Assembly: GCA_036154175.1 (NCBI GenBank)
Contig: JAYZLO010000047.1
Span: forward strand, 1-51,736
Length of the DNA: 51,736 bases
Origin: Thermoplasmatota archaeon
Lineage (GTDB): Archaea > Thermoplasmatota > Poseidoniia > Poseidoniales > Thalassarchaeaceae
Direction of reading: 5' to 3'
Positions 45,821-46,306 of the stretch are shown here, piece by piece. The position numbers and the translations under genes were made by a program. Positions within the stretch are counted from its first letter, which is position 1, and every line of letters begins with the position of its first letter. Under the pieces are notes generated by a model, which saw nothing but the letters and a program-made list of their open reading frames with translations, was not told the origin of the DNA and did no database searches.

Positions 45821-46306
45821 TCATGAATAATCAAGCTTCTTGCCCGAAACCCAGTTTAGAAGATCAATTGCAACCTCGCAAGATTCCGCAATTACTGGCT
45901 CCTCATCATCTACGAATTTCTCCAATGTAGACATTGCAGTCCTGTTTCCTATTGCGCCCAGAGCCTCTGCAGCCTCATGCCTAACCATCAAATCTTCTTC
46001 TAAGTCCTCCAATCTTTCTATCAAACATGGCACTGCTCGATCATCTTGCATCTGTCCAAGAACATAGGCAATCTCGTGCTTGAGCAAGGCAGAGTCAGAG
46101 TCGAAGGCTTTTGCTAGAGCTTCAACAGAGTCAACACCTCCGATATTTCGTAAGGCGAATAATGACCTCATCCTTTGGAACATCCTCTCGTTCTCATCAC
46201 ACAGAATTTCCCGTAATTTCGTTACTTCTTTGAATTCGCTGGCGGGGGCCGGATCAACAGACCCAAACTCGCTTACTTCTGGTTTTTCACTCACAACATC
46301 ACTCAC
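45821..46306 (-). CDS. Half-size deoxyhypusine-hydroxylase-like HEAT-repeat protein (two His-Glu di-iron motifs)
   Basis: SVDPAP...LREIL.DE...FALRNIGG...[22 protein letters not shown]...[15 protein letters not shown]...[10 protein letters not shown]. GTG 46306 overlaps the mqnD stop (GTGAGTGA). Confidence 0.7.
   Translation of the reverse strand: [161 protein letters not shown]

Follow-up and report, generated by a model that had tools for sequence, protein, structure and literature searches.

A half-size deoxyhypusine hydroxylase homologue, core to Marine Group II archaea, and its candidate role as a homodimeric hydroxylase

Does a 161-aa open reading frame (ORF) in an archaeal genome encode half of a deoxyhypusine hydroxylase (DOHH), which in eukaryotes performs the final step of hypusine modification on translation factor 5A, and if so, what might half of such an enzyme do? 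The gene matters because the hypusine literature denies archaea an enzyme of this kind: three papers (PMC5178350, 2016; PMC6105217, 2018; PMC8153317, 2021) report no DOHH orthologue in any archaeon and leave the second step of hypusination in archaea as an unsolved problem. The window, meaning the whole stretch of DNA that was analysed, is 51.7 kb long (51,736 nt). A sequence-only reading of it had proposed a half-size homologue of eukaryotic DOHH overlapping the stop codon of mqnD. The ORF and its product are designated half-DOHH below. The best explanation of the results described here is that the gene product is one half, with four HEAT repeats, of a deoxyhypusine hydroxylase (EC 1.14.99.29).

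The ORF is real and occupies positions 45821..46306 on the minus strand. It begins with GTG, and its translation (161 aa, four HEAT hairpins, two His-Glu motifs) is identical to the one quoted previously. The overlap with the upstream gene spans 8 nt (46299..46306, minus strand; GTGAGTGA as reverse complement). Since GTGAGTGA contains both the GTG start of half-DOHH and the TGA stop of an upstream 303-aa ORF, the two ORFs share these 8 nt. The 303-aa ORF (46299..47210, minus strand) is the upstream member of a two-gene operon and is of mqnD type (1,4-dihydroxy-6-naphthoate synthase family). It matched PF02621 at E=5e-68 and, in the PDB, AF1704 (1e-71) and TTHA1568 (MqnD, 3A3U; 7e-55). On the plus strand, an mqnA-type ORF (chorismate dehydratase family; 45016..45816, 266 aa) converges on half-DOHH and ends 4 nt from its stop, as had been read. 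It also matched PF02621, and the PDB chorismate dehydratase 7AHR at E=3e-18. The start of this ORF is overlapped by a radical-SAM gene of the MqnE/MqnC type (43821..45023, plus strand), which scored 367 bits with TIGR03700 (MqnE) and 314 bits with TIGR03699 (MqnC), both under the curated cut-offs. Its orthologue in the MGIIb metagenome-assembled genome (MAG) SIMO Bin 19-2 is named mqnE by KEGG. An HMM search of the 51.7-kb window in all six frames found no second DOHH-like ORF, in agreement with the statement that no second half lies nearby, and neither dhs nor aIF5A was found within the window.

Many proteins contain HEAT repeats of this class, and resemblance to DOHH had to be distinguished from resemblance to the repeat. 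In Pfam, half-DOHH matched HEAT_PBS (3.8e-15) and HEAT_2 (4.3e-15), and in NCBIfam it matched NblB (1e-11), with every NCBIfam score far under the curated cut-offs. Since no DOHH-specific model in Pfam-A or NCBIfam matched half-DOHH, comparisons with PDB entries, representative sequences and profiles were used instead. The best PDB match by phmmer was human DOHH (4D4Z, E=1.1e-73), a similarity well above anything expected by chance, and both of its halves aligned with half-DOHH, the N half at 115.6 bits and the C half at 132.6 bits. Generic HEAT proteins scored at most 54 bits for the best alphaRep stretch and at most 29 bits for the natural proteins MTH187 and CpcE. Among the matches listed from 1.84 billion representatives, the nearest relatives outside Marine Group II were two-domain, eukaryote-type DOHHs of ∼300 aa with 40–52% identity. 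Core identity to the eukaryotic DOHH halves was 42–52%. Half-DOHH is therefore confirmed as a specific DOHH homologue and is not a generic HEAT protein.

Eukaryotic DOHH (DOHH / Lia1 / Nero; 4D4Z) and half-DOHH have in common the HEAT-hairpin fold, identical His-Glu contexts (e.g. LLKHE.AY.LGQM) and an SVDPAP segment. They differ in that half-DOHH has four hairpins, two His-Glu motifs and 161 aa, whereas the eukaryotic enzyme has eight, four and ∼300 aa, and in that half-DOHH resides in an archaeal host and in an mqnD operon. The PBS-lyase-type HEAT-like proteins (PF03130/PF13646; CpcE/F, NblB, MTH187, alphaRep) belong to the same repeat class, from which the designed alphaRep proteins were derived, but they are scaffolds or lyase subunits and lack the His-Glu metal motifs.

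The two motifs and DOHH-like flanks that had been described are present. The first, H77-E78, lies at 46073..46078 on the minus strand (plus-strand ctcgtg, or CAC GAG on the minus strand). The second, H110-E111 (45974..45979, minus strand), was assigned by alignment to 4D4Z and by invariance within the family. In the 4D4Z alignment, H77 corresponds to H56/H207, E78 to E57/E208, G84 to G63/G214, M107 to M86/M237, H110 to H89/H240 and E111 to E90/E241. All six residues are invariant in 147 half-DOHH sequences, H77, E78, G84, H110 and E111 are so in a set of 36 as well, and more than 70 positions in total are invariant among the 147 relatives. Mutagenesis of human DOHH identifies those His, Glu and Gly residues as iron ligands or substrate-binding residues (PMC9117371). 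The ligand set of each DOHH half was taken as His, His and Glu, and the substrate-binding set as the motif Glu residues plus the Gly located seven residues after the first His. Half-DOHH keeps a counterpart of every ligand and every residue binding the deoxyhypusine side chain that was defined in this way, with one set per polypeptide.

This degree of conservation bears on whether the protein is an enzyme at all. One possibility is that half-DOHH descended from DOHH but is now a HEAT-repeat protein without catalytic activity, or else binds a single iron as a monomer. Consistent with such a fate, Pfam and NCBIfam register only generic HEAT_PBS, HEAT_2 and NblB-like similarity, and one chain carries half of a di-iron ligand set. 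However, the catalytic residues and their flanks are all invariant across an entire archaeal order (147 sequences), which argues for retained catalysis, and half-DOHH scores over twice as high with DOHH as with generic HEAT repeats. We consider loss of catalysis, or a mononuclear site, very improbable.

Nor is the ORF a remnant of a longer gene. Relatives with at least 75% identity (at least 120 listed) are all 150–196 aa in length, and the 147 half-DOHH relatives are about 157–161 aa. Relatives are encoded in 230 stretches of GTDB species genomes. The best 80 of these 230 loci are half-size without exception, and no full-length copy appeared in either set. Uniform length near 157–161 aa together with invariant motifs indicates that half-DOHH is no fragment. 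A truncated fragment or pseudogene is ruled out by the uniform length, the more than 70 invariant positions and the occurrence of a single cluster across both Marine Group II families. Four outcomes had been named at the outset as fatal to the DOHH assignment. Three of these were examined (scores no better than for generic HEAT families, loss of the His-Glu residues in orthologues and a full-length copy), and none was observed.

Among the matches listed, the top of which is taken up in every search by two-domain eukaryotic proteins and by abundant MGII sequences, Poseidoniales (Marine Group II, MGII) are the only prokaryotes with half-DOHH. The genus could be assigned for 34 of the best 80 loci, and all 34 are MGIIb; presence of the gene in MGIIa rests on the pangenome table of Tully 2019. 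In this “MGII Core” table, DOHH is a single protein cluster found in 119 of 158 and 72 of 92 genomes. The gene is listed there as core in both MGIIa and MGIIb, as is deoxyhypusine synthase (DHPS, 0.97/0.99); subunits of cytochrome c oxidase also belong to the core. Half-DOHH is thus one of the core genes of Marine Group II and occupies a single locus, and a DOHH homologue is core to an archaeal group that is among the most abundant in the surface ocean.

The structure expected for one chain was examined with an AlphaFold2 (AF2) monomer model, which contains 8 helices and has a pLDDT of 87.8. When this model was submitted to Foldseek, 4D4Z_A and 4D4Z_B were ranked on top (TMq 0.83–0.85, 48% identity, rmsd 2.2 Å across 144–148 columns) and alphaReps were ranked next (TM ∼0.66). 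A self-concatenated half-DOHH, modeled as a single sequence with no alignment, gave a model too poor to weigh for or against a dimer (pLDDT 61.6, pTM 0.38). This tandem model compared with 4D4Z at TM 0.32–0.35 and an rmsd of 18 Å, and the domain arrangement of 4D4Z was not reproduced.

With four hairpins and two motifs per chain, oligomerisation is required for a di-iron site. Our preferred reading, which we consider reasonably probable, is that half-DOHH is a homodimeric di-iron hydroxylase that would convert deoxyhypusine to hypusine on aIF5A. Each chain would supply H77, H110 and E111 (two His and one Glu), as one half of human DOHH does, and two chains would pair about a two-fold axis in the manner of the eukaryotic N and C halves. 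The amine side chain would then be held by E78, the Glu of the first motif, and by G84, in each of the two chains. Alternatively, half-DOHH might form a heterodimer with a divergent second half encoded elsewhere in the genome. The family offers a natural experiment on whether the DOHH di-iron site can form from two identical four-repeat chains.

The N-terminal extension (aa 1–25; 46232..46306, minus strand) carries an invariant S-x-F-x-S-V-D-P-A-P. Residues P9, S12, F14 and V17–P21 are conserved in at least 98% of the half-DOHH family. In the alignment, residues 9–25 are matched to the 4D4Z chain from its position 144 onward, with SVDPAP identical, so that the extension corresponds to the last part of the linker between the two eukaryotic domains; nothing equivalent is present in eukaryotic N halves. 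The pLDDT of the N-terminal segment is low in the monomer model. The SVDPAP segment is likely to pack against the partner chain or the substrate and to be more than a tether. Note that a half-DOHH homodimer would have two of these linker-like segments, whereas eukaryotic DOHH has one.

The substrate surface of a symmetric homodimer with two SVDPAP segments may therefore differ from that of eukaryotic DOHH, and this raises a second interpretation: that half-DOHH works as an oligomer and performs di-iron hydroxylation as DOHH does, but on another amine substrate, such as a free or conjugated polyamine or another aminobutylated protein. Conservation of the catalytic and amine-binding residues would be expected here too, and the genomic context has no link to aIF5A or dhs. 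On the other hand, 42–52% core identity to the DOHH halves usually suffices to keep substrate specificity, the same genomes carry deoxyhypusine synthase (DHS) and aIF5A, and eukaryotic DOHH acts exclusively on eIF5A (PMC9117371). A different amine substrate is unlikely on balance.

The genes required for hydroxylation of aIF5A, the preferred function, are found in the same organisms. In addition to half-DOHH, Marine Group II archaea have genes for deoxyhypusine synthase and aIF5A and for an aerobic respiratory chain. In SIMO Bin 19-2, half-DOHH (KEGG K06072) is located between mqnA and mqnD, DHS (K00809) adjoins SAM decarboxylase, and aIF5A (K03263) is also present; the co-occurrence of DHS and aIF5A with half-DOHH was seen in this one MGII MAG. 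Against the preferred function, transcript coverage of half-DOHH was very low in one metatranscriptome study. To our knowledge, no MGII archaeon has been cultured.

As to archaeal hypusine in general, the proposal that the gene is a candidate for the missing hydroxylase holds for MGII, where half-DOHH is a candidate enzyme, and does not extend to Crenarchaeota. Hypusine has been measured in Crenarchaeota, and because the gene was seen only in Marine Group II, half-DOHH leaves that hypusine unexplained. The accompanying remark that no DOHH had been assigned in archaea is correct for the papers cited above but not for annotation databases, since KEGG and IMG pipelines label half-DOHH “DOHH” in supplementary tables. 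These labels have carried the assignment since at least 2019, and both the half size and the conflict with the literature went unremarked. We found no paper that discusses the half-DOHH gene in the literature on DOHH or hypusine in Marine Group II, Poseidoniales and Asgard archaea.

The position of the gene beside mqnD is conserved in related genomes, a point that the sequence-only reading had left for checking. Of the best 80 of 230 loci, 77 have mqnD immediately upstream of half-DOHH, and the half-DOHH start lies −8 to +13 nt from the mqnD stop in all 77 loci where both are present. The adjacency is kept where a gene of ∼3 kb has been inserted between half-DOHH and mqnA. Half-DOHH is tightly coupled to mqnD, rather than to dhs or aIF5A, and this counts against the reading that we prefer.

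These data are relevant to a third interpretation, in which half-DOHH is a di-iron HEAT oxygenase that was recruited to menaquinone/naphthoquinone chemistry and is co-expressed with MqnD. Its substrate would be a futalosine-pathway intermediate or the finished quinone. The operon link is the only point in its favor, and it comprises the mqnD adjacency and spacing just described, their survival of the ∼3-kb insertion on the mqnA side and the placement of half-DOHH between mqnD and mqnA-mqnE. However, the neighbourhood is collinear across related genomes and includes the unrelated priS and transketolase genes, so that adjacency is weak evidence of shared function. In one locus (L022), half-DOHH is kept with its own upstream spacer and mqnD and mqnE are absent. 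The invariant acidic and Gly residues, which bind the cationic deoxyhypusine in human DOHH, would be surprising if the substrate were aromatic and hydrophobic. Half-DOHH showed no similarity to any Mqn family in Pfam or NCBIfam.

The steps of the futalosine pathway that remain after MqnD are prenylation, decarboxylation and methylation, and we know of no unassigned hydroxylation step among them, which also counts against a quinone substrate. Di-iron hydroxylation is not foreign to quinone pathways, Coq7 being a di-iron hydroxylase of ubiquinone biosynthesis. If half-DOHH did act on quinones, it would have in common with Coq7-type hydroxylases both O2-dependent di-iron hydroxylation and a quinone-pathway neighbourhood. 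Nevertheless, the Coq7-type enzymes have a four-helix-bundle, carboxylate-bridged di-iron fold that is unrelated to the HEAT solenoid of half-DOHH, and no sequence similarity between the two was detected in the searches run. Despite the conserved mqnD operon, we favor aIF5A hydroxylation over a role in quinone chemistry, to which we give only a small chance.

How Marine Group II came by the gene can be approached from its relation to the two halves of eukaryotic DOHH, between which the half-DOHH sequence is central. One scenario is that the C-terminal half of a eukaryotic DOHH, along with the end of the linker, was acquired horizontally by the Marine Group II ancestor and truncated. We judge this to fall slightly short of an even chance. 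It agrees with the restriction of the gene to Poseidoniales among the prokaryotic matches listed, and with the SVDPAP linker end that half-DOHH has in common with the C half. The C half outscores the N half in 88 of 98 proteins, and the archaeal clade falls on the C-half side of a point-estimate neighbor-joining tree. Furthermore, archaeal identity to C halves (45%) and to N halves (42.5%) places the archaeal sequences no further away than the halves are among themselves (C-C, 47%; N-N, 40%).

Other values do not fit transfer as well. In the core, N and C halves have 37% identity to one another, less than half-DOHH has to either, and in 80 of 89 proteins half-DOHH is nearer to the N half than that protein's own C half is. 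The sequence is a mosaic of N-type (RALF, LLKHE, LGQM, AIG) and C-type states, and its similarity to an N+C consensus is 59%, whereas that of the N halves to the same consensus is 48% and that of the C halves 56%. For none of the eukaryotic halves is the archaeal clade the nearest relative, and bootstraps leave the placement of that clade unsettled. Because the tree consists of three clades (archaeal, N-half and C-half) and has no outgroup, it is unrooted and its rooting is undecidable. Transfer followed by truncation is compatible with function as an aIF5A hydroxylase.

The reverse direction is also conceivable: MGII would make true hypusine via a homodimeric half-DOHH that survives from, or is nearest to, the pre-duplication ancestor, and the eight-repeat DOHH of eukaryotes would have arisen when a prokaryotic half-gene of this kind was duplicated in tandem and fused. 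As a whole this scenario is doubtful. The half-DOHH sequence is useful in any case for reconstructing the origin of the internal duplication of DOHH.

Two narrower routes of acquisition were rejected. A viral vector was discarded since IMG/VR yielded no viral relatives of half-DOHH, a result that also speaks against the transfer scenario. Recent transfer from a particular eukaryote was discarded on the grounds that there is no nearest eukaryotic half, that bootstraps are scattered and that base composition is native. The GC and GC3 values of half-DOHH, which also weigh against the transfer scenario in its general form, are like those of the neighbouring genes and show long residence in the genome.

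The 161-aa ORF studied here (window 45821..46306, minus strand; half-DOHH, a homologue of eukaryotic deoxyhypusine hydroxylase, DOHH) begins with a GTG. Because the reverse complement of window 46299..46306 reads GTGAGTGA, this start and the TGA stop of the gene upstream lie in an 8-nt overlap. That 303-aa gene (46299..47210, minus strand) is of MqnD type (PF02621; PDB TTHA1568/3A3U at E=7e-55). The convergent 266-aa gene (45016..45816, plus strand), whose end lies 4 nt from the half-DOHH stop, is of MqnA type (chorismate dehydratase 7AHR at 3e-18); a radical-SAM gene of MqnE/MqnC type lies just upstream of it. 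The ORF, its overlap with mqnD and the converging mqnA were thus as the sequence-only reading had described them. No second DOHH-like ORF was found within the window, the remainder of which is clearly archaeal (exosome subunits, SBDS, proteasome alpha, TiaS, PriS, aEF2 and diphthamide synthase), and its nearest relative among GTDB species is the Marine Group II (MGII) MAG TMED173. Note that the MqnA- and MqnD-type proteins matched no NCBIfam equivalog and that the radical-SAM protein scored under both curated NCBIfam cut-offs, so this futalosine cluster would stay largely unnamed by NCBI naming rules. A UbiD-family decarboxylase (28900..30171, minus strand), adjoining a TPR protein ∼15 kb from the mqn genes, could be an MqnL-type late-step futalosine enzyme encoded apart from mqnA, mqnD and mqnE.

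The only similarity that Pfam and NCBIfam gave for half-DOHH was of a generic kind (HEAT_PBS, HEAT_2, NblB-like), with no DOHH-specific model among the matches. In a sequence search of the PDB the top match was human DOHH (4D4Z, E=1.1e-73), both halves of which aligned without gaps (N half, 115.6 bits; C half, 132.6 bits), versus at most 54 bits for the best single stretch of designed alphaReps and at most 29 bits for the natural HEAT proteins MTH187 and CpcE. In the predicted structure (pLDDT 87.8), eight helices pair into four HEAT hairpins, and Foldseek ranked 4D4Z first (TM 0.83-0.85, 48% identity), followed by alphaReps at ∼0.66. Using human residue numbers that allow for the five-residue offset of the PDB chain, H77-E78 aligns with H56-E57/H207-E208, H110-E111 with H89-E90/H240-E241, G84 with G63/G214 and M107 with M86/M237. 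The di-iron centre of human DOHH is anchored by H56, H89, E90, H207, H240 and E241, and the deoxyhypusine side chain is bound by motif Glu residues and a Gly (PMC9117371). Given these roles and the alignment to 4D4Z, a single half-DOHH chain has the complete functional residues of precisely one half of the enzyme. By sequence, fold and catalytic residues it belongs to the DOHH superfamily, as had been proposed over a generic HEAT-repeat assignment; it does not have the single-chain eight-repeat architecture.

A first protein search gave 2692 relatives. The 120 listed are all 150-196 aa long, 75-95% identical and from MGII/Thalassarchaeaceae MAGs, and several carry the IMG name “deoxyhypusine monooxygenase”. 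More than 70 positions, both His-Glu motifs and their flanks included, are conserved at ≥98% among 147 family members. Half-DOHH is therefore a real, well-conserved half-size DOHH variant; that it is a fragment is ruled out by these conserved positions and by the uniform length of the listed relatives. Relatives are encoded by 230 stretches of GTDB species genomes, and the best 80 loci are all on Poseidoniales-type archaeal contigs. An exhaustive HMMER scan covered 1.84 billion cluster representatives; among the best 150 matches only two clusters, P0127 and P0215, are half-size, the members of P0215 being labelled Thalassarchaeaceae. The other specifically DOHH-like matches among these 150 are almost all two-domain proteins of ∼300 aa, 40-52% identical and, where named, eukaryotic (e.g. 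Geosiphon, EukProt). Two archaeal contigs with the half-DOHH synteny (P0111 and L065) are publicly labelled bacterial (“Woeseia sp.”, “uncultured bacterium”).

The KEGG/IMG label of this protein is already present in databases and supplementary tables; discussion of the label or of the half size was not found. In the annotation of the MGIIb MAG SIMO Bin 19-2 by Damashek et al. 2021 (PMC9723583, Supplementary file 4), gene 936 (480 nt, “PBS lyase HEAT”) is labelled DOHH (K06072) by GhostKOALA, sits between mqnA and mqnD with an mqnD overlap of ∼8 nt, and has a few detected transcripts. The same MAG encodes deoxyhypusine synthase (K00809) beside SAM decarboxylase, as well as aIF5A (K03263), and so answers the earlier question of whether dhs and aIF5A co-occur with half-DOHH. 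In Tully 2019 (PMC6336850, Supplementary Data 10, sheet “MGII Core”), where “Core” means ≥70% of both MGIIa and MGIIb genomes, “DOHH; deoxyhypusine monooxygenase” is one protein cluster found in 119/158 and 72/92 genomes; DHPS (0.97/0.99) and cytochrome c oxidase subunits are core too. A genus was assigned to 34 of the 80 loci via the Damashek MAG table and all 34 belong to MGIIb (N1, N2, O1-O5, P), so presence in MGIIa comes solely from the Tully table. DOHH and hypusine are absent from the main texts of both papers, and no publication was found linking either with MGII, Poseidoniales or Asgard. According to the hypusine literature, archaea have no DOHH orthologue (PMC5178350, PMC6105217, PMC8153317). 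Hypusine has been measured in Crenarchaeota and the gene was seen only in MGII; half-DOHH, named by the sequence-only reading as a candidate for the missing archaeal hydroxylase, cannot therefore be that enzyme in general.

Eukaryotic DOHH holds its (His)4(Glu)2 di-iron centre between the pseudo-symmetric halves of one chain, whereas half-DOHH would need two chains. By homology each chain would supply two His and one Glu, as one human half does, and a two-fold homodimer would rebuild the centre. A single-sequence tandem model was of poor quality and unlike the 4D4Z arrangement. The acidic and Gly residues responsible for holding the amine side chain are invariant, which argues that the substrate is cationic and resembles deoxyhypusine, and the MGII organisms carrying the gene have both the substrate pathway and aerobic respiration. 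The invariant N-terminal S-x-F-x-S-V-D-P-A-P corresponds to the last part of the inter-domain linker of eukaryotic DOHH and is missing from eukaryotic N halves. Since it is conserved in a protein without a second domain to tether, it probably has a function of its own, and a homodimer would hold two copies of it. Of the functions considered for half-DOHH, that of a homodimer hydroxylating deoxyhypusine on aIF5A has the best support, and we favour it with some reserve.

A quinone-related role was weighed on the evidence of gene order. The arrangement of priS and a small ORF on one strand, mqnD and half-DOHH on the other, mqnA and mqnE facing them, and then transketolase is kept in nearly all 80 loci. 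The mqnD stop lies -8 to +13 nt from the half-DOHH start in 77/77 loci holding both genes; the pair is a stable two-gene operon, unbroken even where ∼3 kb separates half-DOHH from mqnA. As a functional link, however, the operon is weakened by unrelated flanking genes that are equally collinear, and at L022 (3220..4784, MGII MAG) half-DOHH (3508..3990) persists directly after the small ORF, with its own 94-nt spacer, in a locus with neither mqnD nor mqnE; a diverged mqnA-like gene (46% identity) is still there. To our knowledge the futalosine pathway has no unassigned hydroxylation step. We regard a quinone-related role as a minor and improbable rival.

The ∼3 kb separation from mqnA occurs in genera N2 and P and in L066 (L044, L046, L047, L051, L052, L056, L059, L060, L063, L066). 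In L047 it encodes, at 6512..9055, a membrane protein of 847 aa that has EF-hands and an acidic tail; a single EF-hand is also present in the window itself, in an acidic and proline-rich protein (48763..49743). Both L051 and L056 come from MAG SAT218, where the whole mqnD to half-DOHH region occurs twice, once per contig, pointing to either strain heterogeneity or a duplication. The small ORF (47231..47437, plus strand; 68 aa) abuts the priS start, has no Pfam match, and is found again in the same place, at 38-89% identity (tblastn), in nearly every related locus; its counterpart in SIMO Bin 19-2 is the unannotated gene 938. It appears to be a small protein particular to this lineage and to share a transcript with primase.

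To assess origin, each of 98 two-domain DOHHs was divided into its N and C half, and these were set against 13 archaeal-clade representatives over the shared core (half-DOHH residues 26-150). Mean identities were 42.5% (archaeal to N), 45.2% (archaeal to C), 37.1% (N to C), 40.3% (N to N) and 47.0% (C to C). After gap filtering, the archaeal protein was nearer the N half than was that half's own C half in 80/89 proteins, and nearer the C half than was its own N half in 86/89. Identity to the N+C consensus was 59% for the archaeal protein, 56% for C halves and 48% for N halves. It combines N-type states (RALF, LLKHE, LGQM, AIG) with C-type states (SVDPAP, LRN, ESC.VA.D). Neighbor-joining bootstraps recovered the archaeal clade in 190/200 replicates without fixing its attachment point, and no specific sister was found among the eukaryotic halves. 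A lineage that split off close to the duplication node would be expected to show such centrality, but the comparison, of three clades with no outgroup, is unrooted; half-DOHH may, tentatively, be a pre-duplication-like lineage. An old transfer of a DOHH C half from a eukaryote to MGII, followed by truncation and selection for a symmetric dimer, is given nearly an even chance: half-DOHH was seen in one archaeal order only, it is no farther from the eukaryotic halves than they are from one another, and with the linker included the C half outscores the N half in 88/98 proteins. The base composition of the gene is native, and no viral relatives were found in IMG/VR.

Diphthamide synthase (Diphthami_syn_2; 21288..22109, minus strand) and aEF2 (31480..33687, plus strand) constitute a second eukaryote-like translation-factor modification system in the same genome region. 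A 562-aa protein (33688..35376, minus strand) fuses an N-terminal NUDIX domain to a polyprenyl synthetase domain and may combine isopentenyl-diphosphate isomerase with prenyl-diphosphate synthase. A very long Lhr-type helicase (10533..15902, plus strand; 1789 aa) has known Lhr domains up to near residue 840, and its remaining ∼900 residues give only a weak DprA winged-helix match.
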